DNA from: a virus
Reading direction: 5' to 3' (one strand)
IMG/VR virus record: IMGVR_UViG_3300045988_108212
Coordinates: 64,001-128,000 of that record
Length of the DNA stretch: 64,000 nucleotides
Shown: piece after piece, positions 6,609 through 42,193 of the stretch
Numbering within the stretch: position 1 is the stretch's first letter
Layout of the letters: every line of letters begins with the position of its first letter
The notes under the pieces: model-generated
Told to the model about the DNA's origin: nothing
Seen by the model: only the letters and a program-made list of their open reading frames with translations
Databases searched by the model: none
Program-made: the position numbers and the translations under genes

Positions 6609-8592
6609 TCGTATCTCCCTTCAGAATCTTGATTAATCCATCTTCATCAATGATCGGAATGCCTAACTGTTGTGCTTTTTTATTCTTACTGCTTGTAGAA
6701 TTCACATCATTGTTCACAAGATAATTCGTATTCTTTGATACAGATCCTGCAACCTTGCCACCTCTGGACTCAATTTCATCTTTGATCGCATTACGATTGG
6801 CAAACTTATTTACTTTACCAGTCACAACAAAAGTCATTCCTGTGAGATCAACCATTGATTCTTTTTTGCTTTCTGGCATCTCAAACTCAAGCTCTTTAGC
6901 TAATTTCTCGACCATTTCAATGTTTTCTTTGAAATAATCATCCATTGACAATGAAGTATTGATACCAATACCATCAATATGTCCAAAATATTTTCTCTTT
7001 TTGATTCTTTCGATAAACACATCATATGGATTTTCGTTATTCGATAGAGAAATCTTATCAATAAGCTTGCAAATATCCTTTGCCGTTGACTTCCCAACAA
7101 GTTCAATGCCAAGTGCTGTTACGAAATTAACCAGTTTACACTTACGACTTTCCTCGATGCTATGTAATAAGGAAGAAACACTTTTTACACCAAATCCATC
7201 AAGGTTCTTCATCTCAGGTTTATACTCTGCTAAATTATAAATATCTGTATAATCTTTTAGCCATCCAAGATCAATAAATCTTTTCAGTGTTGCCTCAGAT
7301 AAACCTTGAATATTCATTGCATCTCTGGAAACAAAGTTCACAAACTTGCTTAATAGCTTTGCCTTGCAGTCAGGATTCATACATTTCAGAACCTTACTGC
7401 CATTCTCGTTGATGATTTTTGCTTCGCCACCGCAGGTTGGACAAGTATCTGGAATCTTGAATGTATTGCTTCTTGTCAGATTATCGTGTACTTTTGGAAT
7501 TACCATATTACTACGATAAACCTGAATCGTATCGCCTGCACCAAGCTCTAATCCTTCAATGTAACTTACATTATGTAATGTAGCTCTTGTGGTTTCTGCA
7601 CCATCAAGATCAATTGGATCGAATACTGCGACTGGATTAATCAACCCTGTACGAGATGTATTCCATTCAATATCTCTGATTGTTGTTTCGTAGAGGTCAT
7701 CAGACCATTTCATCGCAAGCATATTTAAGGGGAATTTACTCGTTGCCCCAAGAGATTTCCCATACTGATAGTCGTTATAAGTGAAAATCAGACCATCAAC
7801 AGGATATTCATATGCCTCTGGATCAAATTTCTCAATATATTCTTCAACATTATCTCGATCAACAATCTGATGTTCTACAACGTCAAATCCCTGCTCTGCA
7901 AGATATTTAAAACTATCAGCAATACTTGGCATTTCTTCTTCAGATACGCCATCAATTTTGACTAACTCAAATGCTTTGTAAGCAAGTTTTCTTTCCTTTG
8001 CTACATTCGCATCTAACTGCCTGATTGTACCTGCTGCCAGATTTCTTGCGTTCTTGTATTTACCATGCAACGCTTCATTGATTTTCTGGAAGTTTTCATA
8101 ACTAATAACTGATTCGCCACGTACCTCAATACTACGCTTATCAGGAATCTCAAGAGGTAAATTGAAAATCATACGTGCTGTATGAGTCACATCTTCTCCA
8201 ATTTCGCCATTTCCCCTTGTAATTGCTTGTTTTAAGCGTCCTTTTTCGTACCTTAGTACCACCGTCAAACCATCTTCTTTCCACGATAAAACACCAATTT
8301 TATCCGCAAGAAATTTTTTGACCTCATTGACATCCTTCGTCTTCTGAGCTGATAACATTGGGCGTGTATGCTTTACTTTAGCCAAAGAATCAATTATAAA
8401 TCCTTGAACGTGGTGGATGGGTGAATTATTCAAAACAACGCCAGAATCTCTCTCAAGTCGTTCTAAAGCAGCGCATAAATCGTCAAATTCTTTATCTGAA
8501 ATGAGCGGATTATCCTCTGCGTAGTACGCATATGAAGCATCATTGATTCTGTCGATCAAGACATTCATTTCTTTCACATATTCAGTTTTCAT
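6601..8592 (-). CDS. ligA: NAD-dependent DNA ligase
   Basis: 663 aa. Adenylation site SWKEDG (KxDG), Cys4 finger CPTCGGE..CMNPDC, HhH region and a C-terminal BRCT (MTFVVTGKV..). Confidence 0.92.
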   Translation of the reverse strand: MKTEYVKEMNVLIDRINDASYAYYAEDNPLISDKEFDDLCAALERLERDSGVVLNNSPIHHVQGFIIDSLAKVKHTRPMLSAQKTKDVNEVKKFLADKIGVLSWKEDGLTVVLRYEKGRLKQAITRGNGEIGEDVTHTARMIFNLPLEIPDKRSIEVRGESVISYENFQKINEALHGKYKNARNLAAGTIRQLDANVAKERKLAYKAFELVKIDGVSEEEMPSIADSFKYLAEQGFDVVEHQIVDRDNVEEYIEKFDPEAYEYPVDGLIFTYNDYQYGKSLGATSKFPLNMLAMKWSDDLYETTIRDIEWNTSRTGLINPVAVFDPIDLDGAETTRATLHNVSYIEGLELGAGDTIQVYRSNMVIPKVHDNLTRSNTFKIPDTCPTCGGEAKIINENGSKVLKCMNPDCKAKLLSKFVNFVSRDAMNIQGLSEATLKRFIDLGWLKDYTDIYNLAEYKPEMKNLDGFGVKSVSSLLHSIEESRKCKLVNFVTALGIELVGKSTAKDICKLIDKISLSNNENPYDVFIERIKKRKYFGHIDGIGINTSLSMDDYFKENIEMVEKLAKELEFEMPESKKESMVDLTGMTFVVTGKVNKFANRNAIKDEIESRGGKVAGSVSKNTNYLVNNDVNSTSSKNKKAQQLGIPIIDEDGLIKILKGDTSE

Positions 8593-8676: not shown

Positions 8677-9315
8677 TTACTTCACTACATATATTTTTCT
8701 GTGCTGTTGCACATTTATTGTTTCGGAATGTGTTGATTTGAACACGTCTACATGCATTCCTTTTACTTTGCCTCCGCAATCTTCTGCCACAAAGATTGTG
8801 TCACCGTATCCCTCAATCTTAACTCTTGTTCCATAAGGGATAATGTTTTTATCAACCGCAATCGTATGATATGGTCGAGCAAATTTATGCCCTGCATGAT
8901 TCCAAGCAATCTTAGATCCATATCCTTCAGAACATTCATAACATGGACAATATGCCGTGATCAAAAATGTTCCAAGTGAACTCTTTTCAAGTTCTCGCTT
9001 TCGCTTCAGCCGCTGTCGTTTAATTCGCAATCGTTTCTTTCGAAGTTTTTCTAATCGAATCTGTCTTGCTTGCTCTTCATCAGCTTTCTTACATTTCTGA
9101 TAATGCTCATGAACATCTTTTAATGCAACGCTTTGGCTGATTGGATTGTCTGAAATCACATTGCCTTGCTTATTTTCTGCAACAGTTGTCTCTGTTGATA
9201 AGGTTGAAGCCTCTACCGAGGGTCGCTCCTCTGCTTTAACCGTGTGAGTCATAAAGCCCGAACACATTGCTAAAAAACTAAACGAGACAACTTTCATTAA
9301 AAATCTTTTTCTCAT
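8677..9315 (-). CDS. secreted 3D-domain protein (MltA/RlpA-like barrel)
   Basis: Signal peptide MRKRFLMKVVSFSFLAMC, a basic coiled segment, then GTFLITAYCPCYECSEGYG..TIAVD..IPYGTRV..FVAEDCGG, typical of 3D domains. The start is set to 9315 because the track's 9339 lies at the predicted transcription start site (TSS). Confidence 0.7.
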   Translation of the reverse strand: MRKRFLMKVVSFSFLAMCSGFMTHTVKAEERPSVEASTLSTETTVAENKQGNVISDNPISQSVALKDVHEHYQKCKKADEEQARQIRLEKLRKKRLRIKRQRLKRKRELEKSSLGTFLITAYCPCYECSEGYGSKIAWNHAGHKFARPYHTIAVDKNIIPYGTRVKIEGYGDTIFVAEDCGGKVKGMHVDVFKSTHSETINVQQHRKIYVVK

Positions 9316-9345: not shown

Positions 9346-9383
9346 ATCTTATCATACTTCTTGCACCCTGTCAATAGGTGCAA
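9346..9383 (-). promoter_or_regulatory. sigma70-type promoter with overlapping palindromic operator (cassette copy 1)
   Basis: Minus strand: TTGACA (9374..9369), 17 nt spacer, TAAGAT (9351..9346). The inverted repeat TTGCACC (9361..9367) / GGTGCAA (9377..9383) brackets the -35. It is nearly identical to 42194..42250. Confidence 0.5.
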
Positions 9384-9392
9384 AGAATAAAG

Positions 9393-11666
9393 TTAATTTT
9401 TTAGGCTTAACCAAGTGCGCCTCTTATTATGATTTGTCATAATACATCTCTTAAACGCTTCTGGCTCTGCAAGGAGTGCAAATCTTTTCTTAGCTCGTGT
9501 CAACATTGTATATAACATACAGTTATCAAGCAATTTGTAATGTGTATTGTCAATAATACCGATCACAGTTTGCGCAGCTGATCCTTGAAGTTTATGCGTG
9601 GTTAATGCATATGCTAATTGCAGTTGTCCTAACTGAGCGAAAGAATATTCAATCAGCTTTTCTTCAATATTTGCATTCATAGACACCAAACATATTTCTT
9701 TTTCTTTGTCAATCTCTGTAATGTATCCAATATCACCATTGAATACATCTCGCTCGTAATCATTTGAAGTCTGTAATACCTTATCTCCTAAATAGTATTT
9801 ACGATCTTTGAATTCAACAAATGGTTTGTTACTACTAGCAAATAATTCTTTCTGTACTGCTTTGTTCAATTCATCTGTGCTGTTCGTACAATTACTTCTT
9901 CGTGGAGAAATAATCACAACATTGTCAAGCCCTTCCTCTTTGACAGATTTGATATACTGCTTTACTGCCATATTGAACAATGATTCTCTATTCTTCCTGA
10001 ACAAATAAAACATATCATTTAGTTCACCATGAACAATTTTTAATTGTGGGCTATCCAATGGATTAATCCCTCTGCGAATCTTTCTTGCATCCGTTAAAAT
10101 ACCAGATTTTTCTGCTTGTCTCATCGGTTTGGTAAGCTGTACACTATTTAAACCTTTCTTTTTCAACAGATCCGAGAAAATATTACCAAATCCAATCGGT
10201 GGCAACTGCATATAGTCACCACAAAAAATTAATCGTGTTCCTGGTCGAATTGCCAATAAAAAATTATAGAAAAGGCTCGCATTTGTCATGCTACTTTCAT
10301 CCATGATTACTACATCAGCAGGTAATGGGTTATCTTGGTTATAACAAAAACTATCAATACCTTCTGCTACAAGTAACCTATGAATAGTCCGTGAGTCTAA
10401 GCCTGTTGCTTCTTTAATTCTTTGGGCTGCTTTTGCAGATAAAGCACACGCAACAATGCTATTATTTCTTTTTTGGTAGCATTTAATAATTGGTTTCAGA
10501 ATTGTTGTTTTACCAGTTCCAGCTTCTCCAGAAATAAACACAACTTGGCAATTTAATGCTTTGTTAACTCCTGTAATTTGTTCTTCTGAAAACATAAACC
10601 CTTCTTCATCTTCAACTTCAGAAATCGTCTGACTAATCTCACTATCTGTTATTGGTTCGTAATCTGTTGTATTTCCAAATGAATATTTCTCCATATCTTT
10701 AATAAATTCGTAAATATCCATTTCAATTTTATAATACGATTTCAGACCAATTTTATCTCCAGATGTATATAAATAATTTGGTAATTTTTTATCTGATTCT
10801 TCATCAAACCATTCGTCAAATATAGGTAAGCATTCAGACGCTGCATTACTAATATTGCTTCTTAAATTTTTGATATACACATATGTATGTCCATCATTAT
10901 CACCAACTTGATGCAAGTCGTAAGAAATAAATGCGTTTAACCGTTGATTTGAGCATCGCAATTCTGGTTTTAATTTGAGCGCAATATCATCAACTCGTTT
11001 AAAGCCCATGCCCTTTACCCTAGTTAGTATATATGGATTTTGTTCAATCTGTTTTTTTAAAACACTTGGATTAGGTTCGGATTTCAATAATCTTTCAATC
11101 GTTGGTAACGTAACCCCATATGGTTGCAACATTACAACAATATCAGAAATCACATAGTTTTTAATAATTTTATCTCTAAGCTTCTTCCAAGTTTTATCTC
11201 CTAGTCCTTTGATTTCTGAATGGTCAATCATCTCTAACTGACCATTCATTACATCTTCAACAACATTAGGATATTTCGCAATTAACTGATCTGCGATCAC
11301 TGCGTTCGTCTGTGTTTTTAAAAATACCTTTTGTGCTTCAAAAGTTTTAGGAACTTCAGCAACTATAGAAAGTGGTTTATATTGGTATTCATTGTATTTC
11401 TTAGAATATGTCATATTGGCTTTAACCTTATATTTCGTTCCTAAATACAACTCCTGCATATTACCAACCAATTTGCCACATTTATTCATTTTTTTATCGG
11501 ATAAGTCATCAAAATCATTATTATTATATGGTTTACATTCTGGTAAATCTTCTGCTGTACAGAATGTGTAAATCCCAAATAAAGATTCTTCATTATAATA
11601 AATCTGATATAATGGGACAATCTCAAACTCATATTCTTTTGTACTATCCACCACTTTAGGCGACAA
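9393..11666 (-). CDS. RecD2-like ATP-dependent DNA helicase
   Basis: Walker A GEAGTGKTT, Walker B VIMDESSM, C-terminal ALTTHKLQGS. 757 aa with a TTG start (uncertain). Confidence 0.85.
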   Translation of the reverse strand: MSPKVVDSTKEYEFEIVPLYQIYYNEESLFGIYTFCTAEDLPECKPYNNNDFDDLSDKKMNKCGKLVGNMQELYLGTKYKVKANMTYSKKYNEYQYKPLSIVAEVPKTFEAQKVFLKTQTNAVIADQLIAKYPNVVEDVMNGQLEMIDHSEIKGLGDKTWKKLRDKIIKNYVISDIVVMLQPYGVTLPTIERLLKSEPNPSVLKKQIEQNPYILTRVKGMGFKRVDDIALKLKPELRCSNQRLNAFISYDLHQVGDNDGHTYVYIKNLRSNISNAASECLPIFDEWFDEESDKKLPNYLYTSGDKIGLKSYYKIEMDIYEFIKDMEKYSFGNTTDYEPITDSEISQTISEVEDEEGFMFSEEQITGVNKALNCQVVFISGEAGTGKTTILKPIIKCYQKRNNSIVACALSAKAAQRIKEATGLDSRTIHRLLVAEGIDSFCYNQDNPLPADVVIMDESSMTNASLFYNFLLAIRPGTRLIFCGDYMQLPPIGFGNIFSDLLKKKGLNSVQLTKPMRQAEKSGILTDARKIRRGINPLDSPQLKIVHGELNDMFYLFRKNRESLFNMAVKQYIKSVKEEGLDNVVIISPRRSNCTNSTDELNKAVQKELFASSNKPFVEFKDRKYYLGDKVLQTSNDYERDVFNGDIGYITEIDKEKEICLVSMNANIEEKLIEYSFAQLGQLQLAYALTTHKLQGSAAQTVIGIIDNTHYKLLDNCMLYTMLTRAKKRFALLAEPEAFKRCIMTNHNKRRTWLSLKN

Positions 11667-14600
11667 CCCCCTTCACTTTCTTAATATCTTCTAGCCATTG
11701 TTTATATGGTTTAATTTTCTTTGCGATAACCTTCTCTTCTGAATCTTTTCTGCATAACATCGCAATCTGATTTCCTTTGGTAATCATATCTTCATATTCT
11801 TTTAATTGCGAATGCCAGACGATTGCCTCAGTCAATCCAAAACTAGAATATAAATTCACATACGCAAATGTCTTTTTATTTTTGTCTTTCTTTTTATCAA
11901 CTTTAGCGATCACTGCAACCACAGTACAATCATCTCCATTTTCAACATCTTGAAATTGTTTTGACATATACTTGTATGCCTGATCAAATGGGTTATCGTT
12001 GATAAAGATTTGCAATGCTTCAAATTCCCAAAAATCTTCATTCTCAAGATATTTTTGATTCTGTGCGATAAATTTCTGAAATCGTTCTTTTTCCTTATCT
12101 TTGTACAATTCATACTTTTTATCGTTATAAACTTTCAATATTGCATCTTTGTCGTAATCATATTTCTTCTCACCTATACGGTAATCTTCAGCGTCAATAT
12201 CCCATTTAATAAGTAATTGTTTGTAACTCGGTGCTTTTGCAACTGGCTTGAATGTTGTTGGCTGATACATAGATTTCAAATACTGAATTAAAGTTTTACG
12301 CTTATTCTTTGTTGGAATTGCACCTGCTTTGATCAACTGAATAACCTGTGATTTACTTGGATTAATACGTTCGCAAAAGTTTTCAAATCCTATGAATTTA
12401 CCATTTTTATCACGGTCTTCAAGAATTACCTTTGCAATTTTTTCTCCAATGCCACTGATAGCCGATAATCCAAACAATATATACACATCGTCAATACTGA
12501 AATTCATCATTGATTTGTTTAAGTTTGGTGGTAACACTTGAATCTTAAACGCCTTAGCATCAAGAATATATTTATTTACCATTCCTGCCTTATCTTTATT
12601 GCGATTCAATAATGCCTTAAAAAAACACAACGCATAATGTTTCTTTAAAAACGCTGTTTGTAAGCATAATACAGCGTAGGAGTACGCATGACTTTTGTTG
12701 AATAAGTATCCCCCTTTTTGGGATAATGTCTCGCTAATCTGTTTTGCAATTTCTTCGGGGTATCCATTCTCAATAATCTCGTAATAAAGCTTTTTAGATT
12801 CAGACTTTACAAGTTCAATATTCTTCTTACCAATCGCCTTACGGAATAAGTCAGCTCCTCCATAACTTCGACCACCAAATTTACGAACAATATCAAGTAA
12901 TTGCTCCTGATAAATCATACATCCATACGTTTCCTTTAAGATTGGCTCCATATCTGGATGGATATATGCAATTTTCTCTGGATGATGTTTATACTCAATG
13001 AATTCTTCTAAAACATCCATTGCATCTGGTCTATACAGTGCTAATACAGCTGCCAACTCTTCCATGTTTGAGACTTGTAACCTAACCAGCAAATCCTTCA
13101 TACCAGCACTTTCGACCTGGAAAACACCATTCGTCATTGCACTACGCAATAATTCATATGATCCTTTATCCATTTCAAACTTTGGATTGTTAATATTTAC
13201 ATCAAACTCAGTTAACCCTGCGTCAATTTCGGCTTCTTTTACAGTGTTCAATGTAGCAACACCCAAAATATCAAATTTAATAATCCCAATCTCTTCAACG
13301 ATACGTTTATCTACTTGGATGACGTGTTCTCCATCAGTTCCAAGTTTCATTGCCATATAATCGCTAATATCTGTATCTACAATTCCAACACCACCTGCAT
13401 GAGAAGATACTGTTTTTACTCTACCTGCAAGATGAGATGCAACGTCAAAAAGCTCTTCATATCTTGGATTCTCTGCTAAATCTCTGTTATTCCATAAAGA
13501 TTCTTCAATCGTGTCATATACAAATTTTTTACTTAGTTTGTCCATCTCGTGATAATTGAACCCTAAAACCTTGCCAACATCTTTGATTGCCACAATTGGA
13601 GTAATAAAACTGAAATTGATAATCTGGCATACTCTGTTTTCGCCATACTTATCGATCAAATATTGGATAATCTCATCTCGTGTACCAACATCTGTATCTG
13701 TATCTGGCATTGAAATTCGTTCTGGATTTAAAAATCTTTCAAAAATCAGTCCATATTTGATAGGATCTAAGTCTGTAATTGTAATCGTGTAACACACCAA
13801 ACTACCTGCACAACTACCTCGACCAGCACCAATTGGAATACCATTTTCTCTTGCAAAATTGATAAAATCCCAAACAATCAAGAAGTATCCATCGAATCCC
13901 ATTGAATGAATAATATCTAACTCATAATCAATTCTTTCTTTTCTGAGTTTCTGCTCATCTTCTGGTAATTTATCGAATCCTCGTTTTACCCACCCTGTAT
14001 CAATCAGATACTTTAAATAAGAATAATTATCTTCAAATCCTTCTGGTAATGGGAAAGATGGTAACTGAGGTGCCTGAAATGGCATGTGAATTTCATCAAT
14101 TAAATCTGCAATCCTATCAGTTTCTTCAAGTCCTTTAGTTACTGCGTCTTCTCCAATTTGGTTATCCATAATTGCATGAATTTCATCGTCAGATTGTAAA
14201 TAACATCCTTCATAAATTTCTGCTGCGGTTTCAGTATCGTGAGCAAGCTTTACATGCCAGTTCTGATAATACAGATCTTCTTTTCTAGCAGCGTGACTAT
14301 CAGTTGTGATAATGTATGGTGTATTAGTGTCTACTGAAAGCTGTAAGATTTTCTGATTATATACCATTTGATCCTGATGTGAATGTGACTGCATTTCTAA
14401 ATAAAAATGTGGAAAAATCTCTTTGTATTCACGAACATATTTAACACATTTCTGATAATCTGGCTCTCTGGCAAGTTTAGATGCTAAACAAGCACTACTC
14501 ACAACCAGATCCTTAGCATATGGTTTCAACGCATTCAGATCAATTCGTGGCTTATAGTAAAATCCATGAAAATTTGAATCAGTTACCAATTGATTAATTG

Positions 14601-14889
14601 CTTTTCTACCATTCTCATTCTTTGCTAATACAATTAAATGGAAATATTTGCTATCCTTATTCTGTTCTGTCATATCAAAGCATTCATAAAATTCAACTCC
14701 AAAAATCAATTTAACACTTGGATATTTCTCATGAAGCTTATCATAATAGCACCAACTATACTCATTGCCATGTTCTGTGATAGCCAGGGCTTTTAGTCCT
14801 ATCTCTTCTGCTCTTTGTAAGTTTTCTTCAGGTAATGCATATCCATCTAACAATGAATAATGCGAATGTGTATGTAATGAACTGCTCAC
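11656..14889 (-). CDS. dnaE: DNA polymerase III alpha subunit
   Basis: 1077 aa with an N-terminal PHP domain (LHTHSHYSLLDG). It is colinear with DnaE through the palm, fingers and HhH. GTG start 6 nt after GAGGTGA. Confidence 0.93.
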   Translation of the reverse strand: MSSSLHTHSHYSLLDGYALPEENLQRAEEIGLKALAITEHGNEYSWCYYDKLHEKYPSVKLIFGVEFYECFDMTEQNKDSKYFHLIVLAKNENGRKAINQLVTDSNFHGFYYKPRIDLNALKPYAKDLVVSSACLASKLAREPDYQKCVKYVREYKEIFPHFYLEMQSHSHQDQMVYNQKILQLSVDTNTPYIITTDSHAARKEDLYYQNWHVKLAHDTETAAEIYEGCYLQSDDEIHAIMDNQIGEDAVTKGLEETDRIADLIDEIHMPFQAPQLPSFPLPEGFEDNYSYLKYLIDTGWVKRGFDKLPEDEQKLRKERIDYELDIIHSMGFDGYFLIVWDFINFARENGIPIGAGRGSCAGSLVCYTITITDLDPIKYGLIFERFLNPERISMPDTDTDVGTRDEIIQYLIDKYGENRVCQIINFSFITPIVAIKDVGKVLGFNYHEMDKLSKKFVYDTIEESLWNNRDLAENPRYEELFDVASHLAGRVKTVSSHAGGVGIVDTDISDYMAMKLGTDGEHVIQVDKRIVEEIGIIKFDILGVATLNTVKEAEIDAGLTEFDVNINNPKFEMDKGSYELLRSAMTNGVFQVESAGMKDLLVRLQVSNMEELAAVLALYRPDAMDVLEEFIEYKHHPEKIAYIHPDMEPILKETYGCMIYQEQLLDIVRKFGGRSYGGADLFRKAIGKKNIELVKSESKKLYYEIIENGYPEEIAKQISETLSQKGGYLFNKSHAYSYAVLCLQTAFLKKHYALCFFKALLNRNKDKAGMVNKYILDAKAFKIQVLPPNLNKSMMNFSIDDVYILFGLSAISGIGEKIAKVILEDRDKNGKFIGFENFCERINPSKSQVIQLIKAGAIPTKNKRKTLIQYLKSMYQPTTFKPVAKAPSYKQLLIKWDIDAEDYRIGEKKYDYDKDAILKVYNDKKYELYKDKEKERFQKFIAQNQKYLENEDFWEFEALQIFINDNPFDQAYKYMSKQFQDVENGDDCTVVAVIAKVDKKKDKNKKTFAYVNLYSSFGLTEAIVWHSQLKEYEDMITKGNQIAMLCRKDSEEKVIAKKIKPYKQWLEDIKKVKGVVA

Positions 14890-14900
14890 TAACTTTCACC

Positions 14901-16649
14901 TCAATCCCAAATATCTTCGTCTAATTCTTCATCTGTTGTGATGCTCAGAACATTAATATCATCAACCGCAATTTGATATTGTCTAATTCCGTTAAAGATA
15001 TTAGTCTGTGCAGTTCCTACTAATTCAAATGTAACTGTGCCTTCGTCAGAAAAATCATTCATAATCCAATCATAAATCTTATTTTTTTCATTACATCTAA
15101 ACATCACGCATGGAATATCATTAATCTTGAATTGCATTGTATCCATTTTCTTACCAACAACATTAATTTCTTCCTTATTTAATGTGATATTCTCGACAGC
15201 AATCATCGGATCATCAATGCCCTGCCCGCGAATATCATCCAATTTAGACATTTCCTGTAGTAGTTCAAAATCTAATCTACAAGCATCTACAATGAAATCA
15301 ACTCTATAAGTTGAATCATATTTAATATCTTTCAGCTTGTCGTTTAATTCTGTGAGTGCTCCAGAGATATTATCTGTCGAACATCCAAATGCATTGGCGT
15401 GACCTTTTGCCCATAAAAATGAATTTGTTTCGGATATCACATCTTTCAAACTATCAATCGGGCTATGGTCTACATTTCTTGCACTACCACTCATTTCTAC
15501 TAATCCTGTTTCTGGATTAATATGTTTTCGTAATAACAAACATGGTCTGTTCATATCTTCAGCAATCTTAATAGCAACCAATCCTGTCAAACTGCTATCT
15601 AATGTTTCTGTAACATCAAGAATAGTAATCTTACTATCTTTATCTTTTTCTGCCTCTTTCATAATAATCGGAACCATCTTTTTCTTTTGACGATCCTGTT
15701 TGCCTTTAGCATTTTTGCATAATCGAGCGGCACGATCGTAAATATTCTCTTTGATTACTTCCGCAGGGTTGTTTTTTGTTGCTCTTTTCTTATAGTCAAA
15801 TACCTCATAGTCTTCAATAAATGCTCTAAAAACTAATTCTTTATCTTTCAAAGAACCAAATCGTACCATACCATTGATAATTGGAACGATATACCACTGA
15901 ACATTATGGATATTAACAATACTATGCATTGAATAATCTTGTGCCTGAATTAGTGCTTTAAAGCATTTATTCTGAATATTCTGAAGCCCTTTATCCACTA
16001 ATCGACGTGTCTCAAATGATCTCATATCCATGACATCACCGATATTCGCTAATGCACATAAATCTAAATAATCATCAGCATAATTGATCCATAATTCGTC
16101 ATCCATTGCTTGCAAAAATCTATAAACAACGCCTGCCCCACATAAGTCTTTGTTCTTATAGCGTGGACTGCACTGGTTATTTACAATTACAACTTCCTCT
16201 GGCATTTTAATTTCAGATTCTTCTTTTTCATGGTGATCAAGAATTACAATCTGTACGCCACGATTTACAAGTTCTGTACATTGTGCTACATCATTGGTGC
16301 CTGCATCTGGAATTATTAGAAGTTTCACGTCTTCAGGTATAGTAATATCTTCACTTAATCCATGAGCTTTTGCTTTTTTATGTAATAAGTAACAAATGTT
16401 ACTCTTACCATCATAAAGTTCATTATTAATGCGATTTAAGTACATATATGCCATCGAAGCCGAGCAAAATCCGTCTACGTCCTCGTCAATTAAAATACCG
16501 ATTTTATGTCCATTTTCAAGTGCAAAAATCGTTGTATTTACTGCATTTTTGATACCCTCTAAATCAGCATAATCTTGAATTACGCTATCATCGAGGTTCA
16601 AATACGTTTCATAATCATCAATCCCTCTATTTCTTAAAATTTCTGGCAC
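14901..16649 (-). CDS. RecJ-like DHH-family ssDNA exonuclease
   Basis: DHH motifs DEDVDG, IIPDAGT and ILDHH, plus DHHA1 GHANAFG. The GTG start has no adjacent SD (see finding on start codons). Confidence 0.8.
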   Translation of the reverse strand: MPEILRNRGIDDYETYLNLDDSVIQDYADLEGIKNAVNTTIFALENGHKIGILIDEDVDGFCSASMAYMYLNRINNELYDGKSNICYLLHKKAKAHGLSEDITIPEDVKLLIIPDAGTNDVAQCTELVNRGVQIVILDHHEKEESEIKMPEEVVIVNNQCSPRYKNKDLCGAGVVYRFLQAMDDELWINYADDYLDLCALANIGDVMDMRSFETRRLVDKGLQNIQNKCFKALIQAQDYSMHSIVNIHNVQWYIVPIINGMVRFGSLKDKELVFRAFIEDYEVFDYKKRATKNNPAEVIKENIYDRAARLCKNAKGKQDRQKKKMVPIIMKEAEKDKDSKITILDVTETLDSSLTGLVAIKIAEDMNRPCLLLRKHINPETGLVEMSGSARNVDHSPIDSLKDVISETNSFLWAKGHANAFGCSTDNISGALTELNDKLKDIKYDSTYRVDFIVDACRLDFELLQEMSKLDDIRGQGIDDPMIAVENITLNKEEINVVGKKMDTMQFKINDIPCVMFRCNEKNKIYDWIMNDFSDEGTVTFELVGTAQTNIFNGIRQYQIAVDDINVLSITTDEELDEDIWD

Positions 16650-16716
16650 AACATTAGAGGTATCATTTGTGCCACCTTCATATAATTTGTATTTTATATG
16701 TATAACCTGCCTGTTC

Positions 16717-17745
16717 TTATTTAAGTGTATACAAATAGTTATTTAACAATAGTTCCCATTTTTTAGGATCATCAGTAGGTGATTCTTTTTCATCAAGGAT
16801 TCCTTCTTTTGAGTTATCCATGATGTATGAAATCGGAACTCCATCAATAAAACGATCGCCAAGCTTTTGAATCTCTTCTAACTCAACATCTTTGTCAAAA
16901 ATAAATACTACTTCAACTCCGAGTCTTGTTAACATATCAATTTGCTGTCTTGAAACTTGCTTGCCGCCAGTTGCTACAACATTTTGATATCCATATGACC
17001 ATAGCTGCATGACAGCTTTTTCTGCTTCTGCAACATATACTCTTCCAACCCTTTCTATATAAGGTAGAGTTTTATTCAATCCGTATAAGATTCTTTGTCT
17101 AGCGCATGGCTCAATATATAAATATTTCAAATCATGTTTATCTAACTCTTTCTTGAACAATCGTCCTTTAACACCTACCAAATCACCAATTTCAGAAAAA
17201 ATAGGTATTGTAATTCTGTTTGTATCTTCGTCATAGCCAATATTAAATTCTTTCTGTGTTAAATAAGTAATATGATCTTCATAAAACAGATCATTAACAT
17301 AGTCCTTATAATAAGAAAGAATTCGTTTTGAAATTGGTTTGACTGGTTTATCTTCTTCGGTTTCTATATTTTCTTTCATATCATGAATCAATTGAGTGAT
17401 CTGCAAACTTTCTGGCAGTTGCTCATTAAAATCATGATAATAATCTATGCCGATCAAATTGGCTAGATATTTTAAACCGTCTGGGAAAGACAGACTTTTT
17501 GTAAAGCATACCAAGTCAATTAAATCTGTCTGTCTTTCTTTTGCTGTCATTTTTCTTGTATAATTTGTGCAATTTAGGTTTTCGTTGTTATATGTAATAA
17601 CTGCGGATTCATTATCCCCATCTTTATTTGCACAGCTCCAATATCCAGACGAATGATATTTAATATGATGACAGCCTATATCTTTCAGAATATTTTCTAC
17701 ATAATTATTGTCGTATATATATTCTTTTAGCTGTGCTACATCCAT
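16717..17745 (-). CDS. DNA primase (TOPRIM)
   Basis: TOPRIM Glu in YVAEAEKAVMQL and DxD in VVFIFDKD. It sits between the exonuclease and helicase genes. Confidence 0.75.
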   Translation of the reverse strand: MDVAQLKEYIYDNNYVENILKDIGCHHIKYHSSGYWSCANKDGDNESAVITYNNENLNCTNYTRKMTAKERQTDLIDLVCFTKSLSFPDGLKYLANLIGIDYYHDFNEQLPESLQITQLIHDMKENIETEEDKPVKPISKRILSYYKDYVNDLFYEDHITYLTQKEFNIGYDEDTNRITIPIFSEIGDLVGVKGRLFKKELDKHDLKYLYIEPCARQRILYGLNKTLPYIERVGRVYVAEAEKAVMQLWSYGYQNVVATGGKQVSRQQIDMLTRLGVEVVFIFDKDVELEEIQKLGDRFIDGVPISYIMDNSKEGILDEKESPTDDPKKWELLLNNYLYTLK

Positions 17746-17748
17746 AAC

Positions 17749-19302
17749 CTACGCTCCGTTTTTCTCTCGTTTTATGACATATCCTATTTCGTCCCAAGTA
17801 TTTAAATCCAAATTGATTTCAAAAATTGGAATAACATTTTTGTTACCGCCTCGGTTTTTATCAACCTTAATACAGAAATATGTCTTGTCCTTTTTTAGAT
17901 CGTGCGCCTGTGGCTCTCCCCAATCACTAATTGATATATACTGATATTTGTAATATTCGTCAGGATGTAATCTTTTACCAAGCATTAAGATATCAGCAAC
18001 GTGCTTAATCTGTTTTGCATTGGCAATATTATTACTACTTAGTTGGAATATATCTGTATACACTGTGTCATCTGTTAACTGGAATACAGAAAAACAAAAC
18101 ATATGGATCTCTTTCATAAGCTCTTTAATTTTTGTGGCTGTCTGTTTCACCGTTTGCCAATCATCAATACGATAACCTTTTAACGTGTCATAACCACAAT
18201 ATTTCACATCATATAACATACGATGTTTTCTAAATTCAAACTCTAATGCCGAATCTGAGTAATCAGAGCCAACATCTTTGAAATATAATTTTCCTTGACG
18301 TTTCTGATCTACCCATTTTGCAACTTGCATAACTTTTTGAAACTCATCTGACGTCGTAGCTACTCTATGTCTGTACTCCTCTTCTGTTTCAATAAAGTCG
18401 CCATTTTCATTTGTTTTTCTTTCAATCACATTGCCATTGTTGTCTCTGTAAATACCAAGAACTATTTCTTCTTCTGGCTTTTCAATATCAACCCCATGAA
18501 GCTCTTTAAAACATTTGTTGTTGATCACTGTAACGACTAAGCAATTTCGCAAATCGTCTTCATCCATTTCGTTACTGAGTAATAAAAATTTCTCATCCAT
18601 TGCCAATACGATATATGCGATCAACAACATCATATTTCTTGATTTTCCTTCATTACTTAAGAATCCATTAAAAATTACCTTTCCAAGTCGACACCCTCTG
18701 AACATCTTATTGAGAATCCCCCAAGGTAACGGAATCCCTAAATCTGGTTTTGATAAAAATGATTCAACCTGTGATTCAACACCACTATTCAATAAGACAG
18801 AATCTTCGCCTGCGCTAATAACAGTATTAATTTTGTCTGCCTGAGATCGAATCACTCTATAAATATCTTTTGCTTCCCATTTTTCAAATAACCTATGGTT
18901 TAAAATTCGTTGAACAGGATATCCATTTCTGTCATACTCTCTTACAAGAGAATATTTCTTAACGAGATTATAATATTTTTTAAAATCATCACAATCTGCA
19001 ACCTGCATCCATGATGAAATCGTCTTCCACCCTTTGTATCTTTTGTATGTCCTAAGTCTTTCATCTGATTGACTCATGAACATATTTACCTTATCCTCCT
19101 CAATCGTCTGAGTAAATGTTTTATACATAATCTCAAACATATCATAGAAGAATTTACATGCCTCATCGCTGAAATCATACTGACTTCTCATATATCCACC
19201 ATAAGAAACATATAAATCTGGCTGTTTATACAAAGCACCGATAAACATCATTTCACTCTGAATGTTAGTTACACTTTTACGTTCTACTGCTTCTTCTGTC
19301 AA
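17749..19302 (-). CDS. DnaB-like replicative helicase
   Basis: DnaB-like N-terminus (IQSEMMFIGALYKQPDLY) and P-loop-like GFLSNEGKS. 517 aa with a TTG start. Confidence 0.65.
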   Translation of the reverse strand: MTEEAVERKSVTNIQSEMMFIGALYKQPDLYVSYGGYMRSQYDFSDEACKFFYDMFEIMYKTFTQTIEEDKVNMFMSQSDERLRTYKRYKGWKTISSWMQVADCDDFKKYYNLVKKYSLVREYDRNGYPVQRILNHRLFEKWEAKDIYRVIRSQADKINTVISAGEDSVLLNSGVESQVESFLSKPDLGIPLPWGILNKMFRGCRLGKVIFNGFLSNEGKSRNMMLLIAYIVLAMDEKFLLLSNEMDEDDLRNCLVVTVINNKCFKELHGVDIEKPEEEIVLGIYRDNNGNVIERKTNENGDFIETEEEYRHRVATTSDEFQKVMQVAKWVDQKRQGKLYFKDVGSDYSDSALEFEFRKHRMLYDVKYCGYDTLKGYRIDDWQTVKQTATKIKELMKEIHMFCFSVFQLTDDTVYTDIFQLSSNNIANAKQIKHVADILMLGKRLHPDEYYKYQYISISDWGEPQAHDLKKDKTYFCIKVDKNRGGNKNVIPIFEINLDLNTWDEIGYVIKREKNGA

Positions 19303-19994
19303 TCAAGTCCCTCACCAAAAATATCACTTAAAATGTCGTCCATGTTATCGTCTTGTGTGGCTGTTACTACAGTTTTCTGAGTTGTGATATTATTTGTTTC
19401 AACAAAAGATTTTGCAAATTTTTCATTATTCTTTTTGTCTACTTCATTTAATTTCTGTTTCTCTTTCCATCGTAAATAACTATCATACTTTCCTACTAAA
19501 ACTGCCAAATCATAATTAACCTGGTGCGTTGGATTATCTTTATCCATCGTTCCTTTTTGTATCAAAAATGTTCGATTTTTCTTAAGATATTTCATTTGAC
19601 GCTTCCACATATCTAAAAGATCACTTGGTGGAATTGGTTTCGCCAGACCACGATATGTACCTTTATAAATACTTTTCAATTTTGTAAAAACATATGCTGG
19701 TACAGAACCAATGTAGTTATAATTATCAAGAATAAACCGATATACTTTGTCTTCTAACAATCTTGGTTCAAGTAACACTCGTGCTTTCTGATTATATTCA
19801 TCAATCTTAGACAATGCAGATAACCATTTGTCATGTTTAGTATTTTTGGATAATAATTTTGCTTTACACATTTTGCGGAAACATTCTTTGTGATAATAAC
19901 TATTGTCATATTTAACAATCTCTTGCACTTTATCTAAATCAAGTTCAATTACTTCTTTACAATAAGCGCATTTTACTGTTAAAACATCTGCCAT
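19299..19994 (-). CDS. hypothetical protein with N-terminal zinc-ribbon-like CxxC..HxxC
   Basis: 231 aa; CAYCKE..YHKEC. No further motif recognised. Confidence 0.55.
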   Translation of the reverse strand: MADVLTVKCAYCKEVIELDLDKVQEIVKYDNSYYHKECFRKMCKAKLLSKNTKHDKWLSALSKIDEYNQKARVLLEPRLLEDKVYRFILDNYNYIGSVPAYVFTKLKSIYKGTYRGLAKPIPPSDLLDMWKRQMKYLKKNRTFLIQKGTMDKDNPTHQVNYDLAVLVGKYDSYLRWKEKQKLNEVDKKNNEKFAKSFVETNNITTQKTVVTATQDDNMDDILSDIFGEGLD

Positions 19995-20073
19995 GCTACA
20001 GTTACTCCTCGTCCAATATCAAAGGATTAGGTAGCCAAAATGGCTACCACATAAACCCTTTTGTAATTTCACC

Positions 20074-21288
20074 TTATCCTTCCTGATCTTCTTTGATTTT
20101 TTTCACTAAGATTTCTTCAATCTTCTTTAGCTGATCAAGATCATTAAGACGACTAAAGGCGGTAGGTAATCCTTCTTTGGCGAGCTTATCTTTCATTTCC
20201 TGTCGTTTTGGAGGAGCTAATTTTTTGATTCTGTCAGAAATTCGTTTTTTTACATCCTGAACAGAATCTTTTTTACTAGATGATTCACTGGATGACGCAC
20301 CAGATTCTTCTTTTTCTGCTTCCTCTTCGGAAACTGGCTTACCTGCTTCTCCAAGAATTTCTCTCTTATAGATTTTCTGTTCAACATCTACTGCTTTTGT
20401 AAGAGCATTACCAAGTGTAAACTCTTTGTTTCCAACAGAATTATCAATAACTTTCTGCCAAGCTAACATCTGTGGATCTTCTACAATCTCATTCTTTTTA
20501 TATGTATGCGTTCTATCTTTTACAATCTGAGCACAAACCATGTCAGTTTCATTATCAACGAATGTACGAATTACTGTTTTTGCGTTATAATCCATACCTT
20601 TAAATCCATCAATAATCTTACGACCTGTCGTAACAGTTTCTCTTTTACCGTCAATCATCTTAGATTCTGTTTCATCTTTTTCTCTTGCTGTTACAACACA
20701 ATGTGCTCCAGAAGCTAATAAATCAAGGATTAAATCCTGACCTTTAAAGTTTACAGTCTGGTAATCTTTTAATTCCATACCTGCACCTTCAATCTTGACA
20801 AGTCTGGCTTCACCTGTCATATTTGCAGCATCCGCTTTTACACGATTTCTTTTCTTAGAGAACTCAATCAATCCCTGTTTTGTAGTCAGATTTAAGATTG
20901 TTGATCCATCCACAACAATTGCGTCAGCTCTAAATGGAAGACCATCTGCGTCTAAAACTACATCATCAGTTTCTTCTCCATCGTCATCAAGCTCGTAGAA
21001 GTCACCGTTTGTTTTAACTGTATCAATATAATGTCTTACTTCTCCTAAGCTCTGAGTGTAAACAATGTAAATGTTTTCGAGATTTACACCATTTTCCTCT
21101 AATTCTGGTAAATAATCATCAATACTTCCTGATTCAGAGTCTAGGTATAAGACTCTGAAAGGCTTCCCATCTGGGCGTTTAAAATACGCTAACTGCATTG
21201 CCAGTGTACTTTTACCAGTAAAAGGTTCTCCATAAATAATAGTCATCAATTTACTCTGTGTTTTTGCTGCTTTTCTTGCTTTTGCCAA
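20074..21288 (-). CDS. RecA-fold ATPase, AAA_24/Sak4-like recombination protein
   Basis: N-terminal P-loop IIYGEPFTGKSTLAMQLA and an acidic Ser-rich tail. TTG start 7 nt after GGAG. Confidence 0.7.
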   Translation of the reverse strand: MAKARKAAKTQSKLMTIIYGEPFTGKSTLAMQLAYFKRPDGKPFRVLYLDSESGSIDDYLPELEENGVNLENIYIVYTQSLGEVRHYIDTVKTNGDFYELDDDGEETDDVVLDADGLPFRADAIVVDGSTILNLTTKQGLIEFSKKRNRVKADAANMTGEARLVKIEGAGMELKDYQTVNFKGQDLILDLLASGAHCVVTAREKDETESKMIDGKRETVTTGRKIIDGFKGMDYNAKTVIRTFVDNETDMVCAQIVKDRTHTYKKNEIVEDPQMLAWQKVIDNSVGNKEFTLGNALTKAVDVEQKIYKREILGEAGKPVSEEEAEKEESGASSSESSSKKDSVQDVKKRISDRIKKLAPPKRQEMKDKLAKEGLPTAFSRLNDLDQLKKIEEILVKKIKEDQEG

Positions 21289-39391: not shown

Positions 39392-39411
39392 TTGCACAAA
39401 TGCCTGTGCGA
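39392..39411. promoter_or_regulatory. palindromic site TTGCAC-N8-GTGCGA (operator-like, variant)
   Basis: Its half-sites match those of the cassettes at 9361 and 42209. Located in the 195-nt intergenic region upstream of 37939..39243. Confidence 0.3.
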
Positions 39412-40135: not shown

Positions 40136-40164
40136 TTGACGAACATGTTTAGAATTGTTATAAT
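40136..40164 (+). promoter_or_regulatory. near-consensus orphan sigma70 promoter on the plus strand
   Basis: TTGACG (40136..40141), 17 nt spacer, TATAAT (40159..40164), with TGt extended -10 (40156..40158). No plus-strand gene follows. Confidence 0.6.
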
Positions 40165-40170
40165 GATTTT

Positions 40171-40266
40171 AAGGATAATAATATCCTTATCTATTAAACA
40201 ATTCTAAATATCAAATTCGATTTTCTATCGTGCTGCCAACACGGTAGATTCAAAAAATCTTTTTTT
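40171..40266 (+). ncRNA. candidate ~95-nt small RNA, antisense to the inter-cistronic region
   Basis: Downstream of the promoter lie hairpin AAGGATA-ATAA-TATCCTT (40171..40188), hairpin CTATCGTG-N7-CACGGTAG (40225..40247), then AGATT-N5-AATCT plus T6 (40246..40266). No ATG occurs in this span. Confidence 0.4.
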
Positions 40267-41679: not shown

Positions 41680-41693
41680 AATATTCTCCATTT

Positions 41694-42143
41694 CTAGGAT
41701 GCCATTGCATTCATGTACGATAACATGCCGTTTTGTATTAAAATGCCATGTCCTATTTTTAACATTAAAGATAGATCAGATATTCTTCCCCAATACTCTA
41801 AAAGATTATTCTTTGGAATTGTTCTTCCTTGCTCTAAATACACCTGTGATACCATTTTTAATCCATTACTGGTATTTGGATAAATGGTTACATGTGTCGG
41901 TATCCAGTTCCTTAATTTTTTTGTAATTGGATACACGTTAATCTCTGTGCTCGTATTATTACAAATATTATTAGAATATACGATGACTGGTCTTTTCCCA
42001 TGCAAGATATGACTACCTTCAATTTTCGGCAAATCTGCAAAATATATTCCCCAAACTTGAGGATTTTGATATTTACCATATACATATTCTTTTCTTTTTC
42101 TGTTATCGTTTCCTTTTCTTTCTTTGTTAGTATATCCGTTCAT
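41694..42143 (-). CDS. mazF: MazF/PemK/EndoA-family endoribonuclease toxin
   Basis: WGIYFADLPKIEGSHILHGKRPVIVYSNNICNNTSTEINVYPITKKLRNWIPTHVTI..SQVYLEQGRTIPKNNL aligns with EndoA (YFADL, G.RPV.V, PTHV.I, LEQ.RTI). The start is set to ATG 42143 because the -10 box lies inside the track's extension. Confidence 0.85.
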   Translation of the reverse strand: MNGYTNKERKGNDNRKRKEYVYGKYQNPQVWGIYFADLPKIEGSHILHGKRPVIVYSNNICNNTSTEINVYPITKKLRNWIPTHVTIYPNTSNGLKMVSQVYLEQGRTIPKNNLLEYWGRISDLSLMLKIGHGILIQNGMLSYMNAMAS

Positions 42144-42193
42144 TTTTACGTCCCTCAACTTTCCCCAGTTGTATTTTTTATTTTCATGAATTA

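Follow-up and report, generated by a model that had tools for sequence, protein, structure and literature searches.

A duplicated promoter cassette matched to a predicted recombinase-fold repressor suggests an SPbeta-like immunity system in large uncultured phages

To our knowledge, repressors with an integrase fold have been described only recently, and only in Bacillus phages of the SPbeta family. The SPbeta repressor targets the promoter of its own operon (yopM) and that of the 3D-domain gene yorM, which lies just after the DNA polymerase gene (PMC10516654), and SroF acts as a monomer on an asymmetric 26-bp box (bioRxiv 10.1101/2025.11.27.690993). These two sources, together with PMC10769878, underlie the comparisons with SroF/MrpR (YopR) and with the repeated elements SPBRE and Phi3TRE made below. 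A sequence-only reading of the 64-kb stretch of phage DNA analyzed here (the window) had likened a promoter cassette present in two copies to the element bound by the SPbeta repressor. The analogy proved stronger than claimed, as the targeting of the own-operon and 3D-gene promoters in SPbeta is matched here by the same arrangement. Our best reading, drawn from comparative sequence evidence, is a new variant of the SroF/SPBRE type. Specifically, with a probability of roughly two in three, the cassette and an adjacent gene module would form a repressor-operator "immunity" system in which a dead recombinase-fold repressor, possibly together with a MazF-like protein, silences both its own operon and that of the 3D-domain gene.

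A repeat search identified a 52-nt pair at 9350-9401 and 42198-42249 with 90% identity between copies 33 kb apart, and no other long, high-identity dispersed repeat was found in the whole window. This agrees with the near-duplicate cassette of about 55 nt reported earlier; both minus-strand sequences quoted for it were present, with coordinates that were off by about 1 nt. Cassette copy 1 (9346-9401, minus strand), delimited by direct reading, the repeat search and a core scan, begins in the last two codons of a RecD-like helicase gene and combines an A/T-rich upstream block, a predicted dyad operator and the promoter of the 3D-domain gene. Its dyad core (9361-9383, minus strand) consists of arms TTGCACC (9383-9377) and GGTGCAA (9367-9361) around a 9-bp spacer, TATTGACAG, that contains the -35 hexamer TTGACA (9374-9369). 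The -10 hexamer TAAGAT (9346-9351, minus strand), read directly, lies 17 bp past the -35 and is preceded by TG; its position is kept in all allele classes described below. Cassette copy 2 (42194-42249, minus strand) is the predicted operator-promoter P2 of the MazF-like/integrase-fold operon and scored 11/12 with TG in a promoter scan, with its dyad core at 42209-42231 (minus strand; arms 42231-42225 and 42215-42209), -35 TTGACA at 42222-42217 and -10 TATATT at 42199-42194.

The 23-bp core TTGCACC-TATTGACAG-GGTGCAA is identical in both copies, and each has TTGACA, 17 bp and a TG-extended -10 (TATATT or TAAGAT), with the -35 sitting within the 9-bp spacer between perfect 7-bp arms, as the sequence-only reading had described. 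The 23-nt core TTGCACCTATTGACAGGGTGCAA occurred exactly twice in the window (0.00 expected), and a window scan returned no further site with three or fewer mismatches. A motif search of the window for TTGCAC-N7-12-GTGCAA gave 2 matches against 0.04 expected, and a dyad score of 7/8 was reached by only 3 of the 51 TTGACA hexamers in the window, two of them being the cassette copies. From its sequence, the cassette is predicted to be a strong, near-consensus sigma-70-type promoter (UP-like A-tract, TTGACA, 17 bp, TG-extended -10) whose dyad-symmetric predicted operator is centered exactly on the -35 hexamer, about -33 from the inferred start, i.e., a compact, strong and probably repressible promoter. 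A second promoter without a dyad, P1 (TTGATT-17-TATAAT; 42279-42307, minus strand), was found by promoter scan approximately 50 bp upstream of P2, and transcripts from P1 would run through the P2 operator. The P1 hexamers are conserved, with a variable spacer, in relatives L001, L127, L234 and L238. As a separate observation, the cassette causes breaks in metagenome assemblies.

Relatives of the window genome were used to follow the cassette and its neighboring genes. A 1.6-kb module (cassette, MazF-like gene and the gene for a 338-aa protein) exists in two alleles, one or the other of which is present in each of approximately 48 near-identical phage genomes; they are designated WIN for the type of the window genome and ALT for a type whose 338-aa protein is 56% identical. 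A total of 82 exact cores were found in IMG/VR, spread over about 40 contigs (82-169 kb). Their contexts were the two known from the window plus, in 3 contigs, a third, and related genomes had 2-3 copies each. Five contigs carry the ALT allele, three of which include the helicase locus, with a helicase 97-98% identical to that of the window. The ALT dyad, CTTTAAAYGC-TATTGACAA-GCAYATAAAG (9-bp spacer), is present in exactly two copies in each of these five contigs, none of which contains the WIN core, and it sits at the same two promoters in all three ALT contigs that could be read at both. Among 27 contigs typed at both sites, 24 were WIN/WIN (4 with spacer variants), 3 were ALT/ALT and none was discordant, a count that overstates independence, since a single lineage may account for all five ALT contigs; true replication is at the level of the 4-5 allele classes. 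Between WIN and ALT, amino acid identity is 56% for the 338-aa protein, 70% for the MazF-like protein and 89-99% for neighboring genes, which makes the 338-aa gene the most diverged of the swapped module. Sliding-window identity to an ALT genome was 100% down to about 42,300 (a stretch that includes P1), 37-78% over the module and 85-100% from about 40,700, delimiting a swapped "immunity" module at 40700-42280 (minus strand) that consists of cassette copy 2, the MazF-like gene and the integrase-fold gene. At the 3D-gene promoter, WIN/ALT divergence is confined to about 90 bp (~9430-9340) within ~95%-identical DNA. A predicted operator 33 kb from the candidate regulator gene stays matched to it, apparently through selection and gene conversion.

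Two further matched classes were recovered: TTAATTGrCrC-N9-GTGGCAATTAA, matched on one Logan contig, and TATTGrCAC-N9-GyGGCAATA, where the pairing was seen in shared samples. In relatives with 35-65% alleles, the dyad is centered on the same G of TTGACA, and one is a perfect 12-bp inverted repeat. Across classes the arms measure 7-12 bp and the spacer 9-11 bp, and the -35, the 17-bp spacing and the TG -10 are always kept; within the WIN class, the arms are invariant and spacer bases vary. Both cassettes of a genome follow the allele of the module, and the predicted operator covaries with the allele of the 338-aa protein over at least four allele classes. This argues for the proposal that a dispersed operator is read by a phage-encoded factor, and it favors the 338-aa integrase-like protein, one of the two binders suggested at the outset. 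Covariation of this kind fits the 338-aa and the MazF-like protein (70%) alike, and a gene elsewhere in the ~160-kb genome could also supply the factor. A 316-aa recombinase, 94-96% identical across classes and not covarying with the dyad, was rejected as the matching factor along with orf106, orf121 and orf216 (89-99% identical across classes). The second binder suggested at the outset, an XRE-family regulator (30782-30985, plus strand), has an HTH_26 domain (3e-14) and belongs to a class of dimeric HTH proteins that typically bind short dyads. However, the XRE protein is identical in 3 of the 5 ALT genomes and 17 WIN genomes, which have different operators, and a host factor in the same role could not explain operators that switch with the phage allele in otherwise near-identical genomes; binding by either is extremely improbable.

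The same comparison bears on whether the inverted repeat acts as DNA at all. It might instead form an RNA stem-loop in read-through from P1 or the helicase gene, with a role in processing, stability or attenuation, possibly through MazF-related cleavage. Hairpins of -4 to -16 kcal/mol are predicted in every class, always with ACA in the loop, and upstream transcription would cross both copies if P1 and the replication operon are active. Against this, arm mismatches are A.A, C.A and G.G and never G.U-compatible, the ALT stem is broken in its middle, the dyad center is fixed on the -35 in all classes and the spacing between the loop TTGACA and a conserved -10 is exactly 17 bp. The allele match with a protein-coding module would still need a trans factor. 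We consider an RNA element improbable.

The sequence-only reading had counted four sites as one operator family, of which the two cassettes held up; the weaker sites at 30685-30705 and 39392-39411 were unlinked to the operator allele in relatives. They surfaced only in a loosened scan (one mismatch, variable spacing) that gave 5 matches (about 0.95 expected), including one within a gene. The first (TTGCAT-N9-GTGCAA) was rejected as a member: its left half is TTGTAT in most relatives, its right half drifts (GTGCAA, CTGCAA, GTACAA, ATTCAA, ATGCAA) irrespective of allele class, and at this site ALT contig 132849 does not differ from WIN contigs. It is itself a good promoter (TTGACA-17-TATATT). 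The second was rejected because it is the same in WIN and ALT genomes; it shows a compensatory change in L001 and seems to be a conserved palindrome in its own right.

The first gene downstream of cassette copy 1 (8677-9315, minus strand) encodes a predicted secreted, cell-wall-binding 3D-domain protein of the Sps/YorM-like type (Pfam 3D, 4.8e-12; NCBIfam EntB/SpsC-like), whose 212-aa start was inferred from the RBS and homologue P0016, and it is followed on the same strand by NAD-ligase, LemA, methylase and SNF2 genes. The operon under copy 2 opens with a gene for a 149-aa MazF/PemK-like endoribonuclease (41694-42143, minus strand; Pfam PemK_toxin, 1.7e-15) with a basic 30-aa N-terminal extension and continues with the 338-aa integrase-like gene (40663-41679, minus strand), the candidate repressor by fold and allele divergence, and orf121. 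The MazF-like protein matched PDB entries of PemK, EndoA and MazF (3e-10), and alignment to PemK (4hke) and EndoA showed that the GxRPV Arg and the PTHV Thr are kept. No MazE/PemI antitoxin gene (AbrB or RHH) was found directly upstream, where only some 50 nt of leader lie between the -10 (42194) and the start (42143); orf106, further upstream, is cut off from the MazF-like gene by the two promoters and does not covary. The MazF-like and integrase-like genes are neighbors in all relatives recovered, down to those at 35% identity.

Given this gene content, the operon could be autoregulated in the manner of a toxin-antitoxin system, with a complex of the MazF-like toxin and a downstream integrase-fold antitoxin binding the operator (type II conditional cooperativity) and the 3D-gene copy an added member of the regulon. 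The retained catalytic residues, the missing MazE-like gene and a gene pair that diverges together as a unit agree with this, and palindromic operators over their own promoter are typical of type II toxin-antitoxin operons. On the other hand, we know of no antitoxin with a recombinase fold, toxin-first order is atypical for mazEF, operators of such systems normally have no duplicate at a distant unrelated promoter, and the pair was recognized by neither PADLOC nor NCBIfam. The locus resembles type II MazEF/PemIK in its MazF/PemK-fold protein with catalytic residues and its palindromic predicted operator, and differs in its 338-aa recombinase-fold partner and in the second operator copy at an unrelated operon. 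We regard this explanation as possible but not probable; it overlaps with the immunity reading, from which it differs chiefly in the purpose of the module (addiction or abortive infection versus immunity).

The fold of the 338-aa protein was assessed with an AlphaFold model (pLDDT 80.3) that replaced an earlier one built from 8 sequences, which was too poor for use (pLDDT 58). All of the top 18 PDB matches returned by Foldseek were tyrosine recombinases, with a probability of 1.00 for SroF (9rgl_G), MrpR (8a0a_A) and YopR (8bpz), although global TM-scores were only 0.31-0.38, and the protein also matched PHROG_1 integrase (4.4e-10). According to the model, it has the two-domain (CB and CAT) tyrosine-recombinase fold, as do SroF and MrpR. 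A weak alignment (E 0.23) puts an Asn, replaced by Ser or Asp in homologues, opposite Arg-I of XerA within a box-I-like motif (LYNGIN-GKELRNLKFSDI), and no H-x-x-R motif was found anywhere in the C-terminal half, while the C-terminal Tyr could be retained. With its Arg and His-Arg motifs gone, the protein is predicted to be a catalytically dead recombinase. At the sequence level, a profile search of 1.84 billion representatives found only 5 members of its family, tblastn against 50,697 phage records gave nothing significant, phmmer and profile searches of the PDB gave just one marginal match (XerA), SAM_5 and Phage_integrase in Pfam stayed below threshold, and hhalign of a 10-sequence profile against SPbeta YopR/SroF gave a probability of 0.3%.

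A recombinase fold raises the alternative that the dyads are core recombination sites, with recombination between the two copies, which are in direct orientation, excising, inverting or resolving the 33-kb segment and with their likeness to promoters being incidental. Inverted arms around a central asymmetric spacer, 23-35 bp in total, recall loxP, FRT and dif and offer a natural geometry for two recombinase-fold subunits; a recombinase-fold protein is encoded adjacently, and 1.7 kb upstream there is the 316-aa recombinase, whose R, HxxR, H and Y motifs are intact. Spacer heterology, however, blocks strand exchange by tyrosine recombinases, and spacers differ between the sites of one genome in 4 of the 27 typed contigs and in the L001 and P0003 classes. 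Unlike in loxP, FRT and dif, the spacer is 9-11 bp rather than 6-8 bp, is not conserved between partner sites and contains a consensus -35, while the conserved -35, 17-bp spacing and TG -10 would be needless for recombination. Moreover, the adjacent 338-aa protein lacks the catalytic Arg-I and HxxR and the intact 316-aa enzyme does not covary with the site. Recombination sites are therefore very improbable.

For the immunity system that we favor, we infer which module protein binds, its stoichiometry and its repressive effect as follows. The 338-aa protein, encoded two genes downstream of copy 2, would recognize the operator, probably as two inverted subunits arranged like recombinases on lox- or dif-type core sites, and may act in complex with the co-diverging MazF-like partner. 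Binding by a dimer to the dyad is an extrapolation, since SroF binds as a monomer. Bound repressor would block RNA polymerase at the -35, so that repression of P2 would amount to negative autoregulation of the MazF-like/repressor operon; the internal promoter for the 3D-domain, ligase, LemA, methylase and SNF2 genes, which follow the replication genes, would likewise be repressed, and the bound protein could also act as a roadblock to read-through from P1 and from the helicase gene. By analogy with lambdoid imm regions and SPbeta SroF alleles, the module may set immunity specificity and define heteroimmunity groups. Two to three sites per genome are few for a master repressor of lysogeny, which counts against reading the protein as one. 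Searches by motif and by protein found no integrated prophage or host in 185,579 GTDB representative genomes, so a temperate lifestyle is only a possibility. The window gave no megablast match to cultured phages, and its nearest database fragments come from human faecal samples.

A bolder version is one that we entertain with considerable doubt. In it, the 338-aa protein would be at once the antitoxin of the phage MazF-like toxin and a dimeric, lox-style dyad repressor of a distributed immunity set whose distant operator is converted separately, defining heteroimmunity groups in a widespread uncultured lineage of ~160-kb gut phages and amounting to a second origin of integrase-fold repressors that is either independent or extremely diverged. 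If this antitoxin-plus-repressor reading were true, MazF activity would be linked directly to the lysis-lysogeny switch.

Overall, the locus suggests that the repressor strategy of SPbeta is also used in a sequence-unrelated family of large uncultured phages. As in SroF/MrpR, the predicted regulator has a tyrosine-recombinase fold with catalytic residues lost; as with SPBRE and Phi3TRE, a repeated cis element lies at promoters tens of kilobases apart; and, as in SPbeta, the candidate targets are the regulator's own operon and a 3D-domain gene after a DnaE-like polymerase gene, in a replication module made up of the same genes (Sak4-like, helicase, primase, RecJ-like, polymerase, 3D). In both cases, one phage group contains repressor alleles that differ in specificity (predicted here), and both are tied to MazF biology, through the sro-operon protein YopN/phi3T_93 that frees host MazF in SPbeta and phi3T and through a phage-encoded homologue here. 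SroF shares no detectable homology with the 338-aa protein and, as a monomer, recognizes an asymmetric, A/T-rich box of 24-26 bp, in contrast to the dyad here, which is centered on the -35 in every class; there are 2-3 sites per genome rather than the approximately 10 of the SPbeta family, and a MazF homologue encoded by the phage stands at the head of the operon in place of YopM-YopQ. The annotated SPbeta "palindrome" TTGTAATGCATTACAA was considered as a counterpart and rejected, its sequence being unlike the cassette dyad; further copies were sought in two SPbeta stretches, with only chance-level matches in L230 and two weak extras in L229. The sro operon of the SroF/MrpR type has six genes and adjoins an arbitrium aimR-aimP module; here, no AimR-like protein or arbitrium genes were found among the approximately 50 window proteins scanned, a subset of the ORFs in 64 kb of a ~160-kb genome. 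What sets the locus apart is the predicted geometry of DNA recognition (dyad versus monomer box) and the MazF homologue within the operon.

A parallel for the allele exchange is provided by lambdoid immunity regions such as imm434 and imm21, in which repressor and operators are likewise exchanged together in otherwise near-identical phages to give discrete specificity classes, with dyad operators that overlap promoter hexamers. Unlike in lambdoid phages, where all operators lie inside the swapped module and CI and Cro are HTH proteins, one of the predicted operators here is 33 kb distant and is exchanged on its own, in a patch of about 90 bp, and the candidate repressor has a recombinase fold. 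How DNA sequence is read by a recombinase fold could be learned from this natural allele series, in which at least four repressor/operator classes are matched against an otherwise near-identical genome background.

Both minus-strand sequences quoted in the sequence-only reading were found in the window, where a repeat finder returned a single 52-nt pair (9350-9401 and 42198-42249, 90% identity) and no further long, high-identity dispersed repeats. A 23-nt core shared by the pair, TTGCACCTATTGACAGGGTGCAA, occurs exactly twice in the window, with no extra sites at ≤3 mismatches (chance expectation also none), and a search of the window for TTGCAC-N7-12-GTGCAA gave 2 matches against 0.04 expected. 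As that reading had described, both copies combine TTGACA, a 17-bp gap and a -10 element with a perfect inverted repeat around the -35. Both are near-consensus promoters with a TG extended -10 on the minus strand (copy 1, before the 3D gene, TTGACA 9374-9369 and TAAGAT 9351-9346; copy 2, before the MazF-like operon, TTGACA 42222-42217 and TATATT 42199-42194). In each, perfect 7-bp arms (TTGCACC and GGTGCAA) flank a 9-bp spacer, so that the dyad is centred on the G within TTGACA, at about -33 relative to the inferred start. Symmetry at 7 of 8 flanking positions is reached by only 3 of the 51 TTGACA hexamers in the window, the two cassettes among them. Judged by its sequence, the repeat at the two sites is real and functional-looking.

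Nearly all genes in the window lie on the minus strand, and GC content is about 34%. Encoded proteins include a Sak4-like ATPase, a Toprim primase, a RecJ-like exonuclease, a DnaE-like polymerase (11656-14889), a RecD-like helicase (9393-11666), a secreted 3D-domain protein (8677-9315, minus), an NAD-dependent ligase, LemA, a DNA methylase, an SNF2 helicase, Bro-N proteins and a 316-aa tyrosine recombinase that retains its R, HxxR, H and Y motifs intact. The copy 2 operon encodes a MazF/PemK homologue (41694-42143, minus) and a 338-aa protein with only faint integrase-SAM similarity (40663-41679, minus). Megablast found no DNA-level similarity of the window to cultured phages, and the polymerase shares no more than 32-36% identity with those of database phages, Brevibacillus phage Sundance and human-faecal fragments among them. 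The exact core is present in about 45 IMG/VR contigs of 82-169 kb, so the window comes from an uncultured phage that is common and about 160 kb long; no core copy was found among 185,579 representative bacterial genomes. Accessory genes for an ADP-ribosylglycohydrolase (770-1609), an SPFH/flotillin-like protein (32043-33503) and a weak radical-SAM match (33922-34884) are unrelated to the cassette finding. Two adjacent paralogous ORFs at 28449-29511 (177 and 170 aa) have a 119-nt stretch in common at 76% identity (repeat D1) and no Pfam match. Between the intact recombinase and orf106 lies an accessory gene for a 248-aa calcineurin-like phosphoesterase (42636-43382; weak PADLOC match to PDC-S10, 1.3e-10), most of which is deleted in several relatives (L127, L128, L131) that are near-identical elsewhere.

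IMG/VR holds 84 exact cores, the window's two included, located 5' of the MazF-like gene or of the 3D gene, with a third context in 3 contigs (L035, at 6636-7072 on the minus strand, L026 and L065; IMG/VR contigs 125498, 117858 and 3300029316_000125). The third copy brings a 3D-type leader, GAAGTATGGTAAAATACCAATATG, and precedes a 130-aa ORF without annotation, within a stretch that the window lacks. Five further contigs (ALT) encode the 338-aa protein as an allele of 56% identity, and the IMG/VR search found no window-type core in them; in the 3 of 5 with an available helicase locus, the helicase matches that of the window at 97-98% identity. Each ALT contig has exactly 2 copies of the dyad CTTTAAAYGC-TATTGACAA-GCAYATAAAG, which lie at the same two promoters in the 3 contigs with both promoter regions read. 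Among contigs typed at both sites, 24 had the window's dyad at both (WIN/WIN, 4 with spacer variants), 3 were ALT/ALT and 0 were discordant. Three metagenomic Logan contigs (L236, L237, L240) stop within the cassette 5' of the MazF-like gene, evidently because the intragenomic repeat breaks short-read assemblies.

Compared with one ALT genome, identity is 100% down to about 42,300, drops to 37-78% over the cassette, the MazF-like gene and the 338-aa gene, and is back at 85-100% from about 40,700. Between WIN and ALT, the module's proteins are 70% (MazF-like) and 56% (338-aa, its most diverged gene) identical, versus 92-99% for orf106, 89-93% for orf121, 98% for orf216 and 94-96% for the 316-aa recombinase in the flanks. 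At the 3D promoter the replacement covers only about 90 bp (9430-9340), beginning with the last two helicase codons, and the surrounding DNA is roughly 95% identical. Two more allele classes (65-67% identity) likewise have matched dyad pairs: TTAATTGrCrC-TrTTGACAA-GTGGCAATTAA, at both promoters of a single 77.8-kb Logan contig, and TATTGrCAC-TrTTGACAr-GyGGCAATA, paired via samples sharing both proteins. In more distant relatives (65%, 44% and 35% alleles) the dyad is again centred on the same G of the -35, and one has a perfect 12-bp inverted repeat, TTACCAATCCAA-N11-TTGGATTGGTAA. Across all classes the -35, 17-bp spacing and TG -10 are constant and variation is confined to the arms; within the WIN class, arm sequence is constant and spacer bases vary. 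Such an allele-matched pattern is, on these alignments, that of a cis operator whose specificity determinant would sit inside the swapped module, and it is one that a host factor cannot produce. Of the binders proposed earlier, the XRE regulator is excluded because an identical protein occurs in 3 of 5 ALT and 17 WIN genomes, and comparative evidence strongly supports the integrase-like 338-aa protein as the candidate, its alleles covarying with both cassettes.

The 338-aa family is tiny, with 7 clusters among 5.8 billion proteins and 5 representatives among 1.84 billion. An AlphaFold model from a 10-sequence alignment gave a pLDDT of 80; its best 18 PDB matches in Foldseek were all tyrosine recombinases, and matches include Tn1549 Int, XerA, XerH, Cre, SroF (9rgl), MrpR (8a0a) and YopR (8bpz). 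The protein also matched PHROG_1 (integrase) at 4.4e-10. Its box-I-like motif, LYNGINGKELRNLKFSDI, has Asn at the recombinase catalytic Arg position (weak alignment), and no HxxR motif was found in the C-terminal half, so that, given the modelled fold, it is most likely a non-catalytic DNA binder. That the dyads are instead recombination sites is disfavoured: the covarying protein has no catalytic motifs, the intact 316-aa recombinase shows no covariation with the dyad, the spacers of a genome's two sites are unequal in several genomes, and spacer length is 9-11 bp.

With the repeat, its anatomy, the covariation and the fold observed, we infer binding at the cassettes, its stoichiometry and its sign as follows. 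Two subunits of the recombinase-fold 338-aa protein would bind the inverted arms, lox/dif-style, and shut off P2, the dyad promoter of their own operon (autoregulation); the same binding would shut off the internal promoter of the operon starting at the 3D gene. A dyad at about -33 over a consensus -35 is the classic layout for steric repression, and activator-dependent promoters usually have poor -35 hexamers. An RNA hairpin formed by the inverted repeat is a very improbable alternative, as G.U-compatible arm mismatches are never seen and, although hairpins are predicted, they would leave the fixed -35/-10 geometry unexplained and need a trans factor all the same. Repression by the 338-aa protein might also involve roadblocking at the operator, since transcription from the helicase gene and from P1, a second, dyad-free promoter in the conserved flank (42307-42279, minus) with hexamers footprinted by sequence conservation across allele classes, must cross it. 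The MazF-like protein retains its catalytic Arg and Thr, and its gene lies directly upstream of the 338-aa gene in every relative found; a complex of the two proteins is plausible because their genes co-diverge. Toxin-antitoxin-style autoregulation by this pair overlaps with repression by the 338-aa protein, and the data fit both; we regard it as possible, though doubtful. Biologically, the locus may serve immunity or lysogeny maintenance, or be a TA-like module.

The two weaker variant sites of the sequence-only reading were rejected as operator family members; at 39392-39411 (orf216/orf434 gap), the palindrome TCGCACA-N6-TGTGCAA is unchanged between WIN and ALT genomes, and one relative (L001) has a compensatory change to TTGTACA...TGTACAA. 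This site just precedes a cargo hot spot, where relatives differ in carrying the 434-aa ORF, Bro-N/ANT antirepressor-like genes or a 151-aa ORF. In the orf121/orf216 gap (40136-40211), a nested long inverted repeat, ATGTTTAGAATTGTT ... AACAATTCTAAATAT, surrounds AAGGATA-N-TATCCTT and overlaps a strong plus-strand promoter-like site (TTGACG-17-TATAAT with TG); this predicted promoter would fire antisense towards the 338-aa gene. Inside the orf106 3' end, 10 nt 5' of the P1 -35, lies a Firmicute LexA/Cheo-box-like GAAC-N4-GTTC (42318-42329; 1 in the window versus 0.58 expected). Relatives keep its arms while N4 varies non-synonymously (ATCT, ACGT, ACTT for Ser, Arg, Leu), which hints that constraint acts on the DNA itself and that the operon may receive an SOS input.

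The analogy with SPbeta drawn from the sequence gained support from these comparisons. The SPbeta repressor MrpR/YopR (SroF) has an integrase fold and lacks recombinase activity. It binds the phage's repeated element at ten promoters, among them those of its own operon (yopM) and of yorM (PMC10516654). In the SPbeta record, yorG (Sak4-like), yorI (helicase), yorJ, yorK (RecJ-like) and yorL (polymerase) are followed immediately by yorM, a 3D-domain gene. The window's replication module (9393-21288) has the Sak4-like ATPase, primase, RecJ-like protein, DnaE-like polymerase and 3D protein in common with yorG-yorM, with the cassette standing before the 3D gene; it differs by an extra RecD-like helicase inserted between polymerase and 3D gene. 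In phi3T, the sro-operon protein phi3T_93 binds MazE, frees host MazF and promotes lysogeny (PMC10769878), whereas the window's operon itself encodes a MazF homologue. SroF acts as a monomer on an asymmetric, A/T-rich box of 26 bp (bioRxiv 10.1101/2025.11.27.690993); the site here is a dyad and, unlike in SPbeta-family phages, occurs only 2-3 times per genome. No arbitrium genes were recognised within the 64-kb window, and no sequence homology of the 338-aa protein to SPbeta YopR was detectable; by sequence it cannot be classified as a member of the SroF protein family. The locus nevertheless appears to work like the SroF/SPBRE system.
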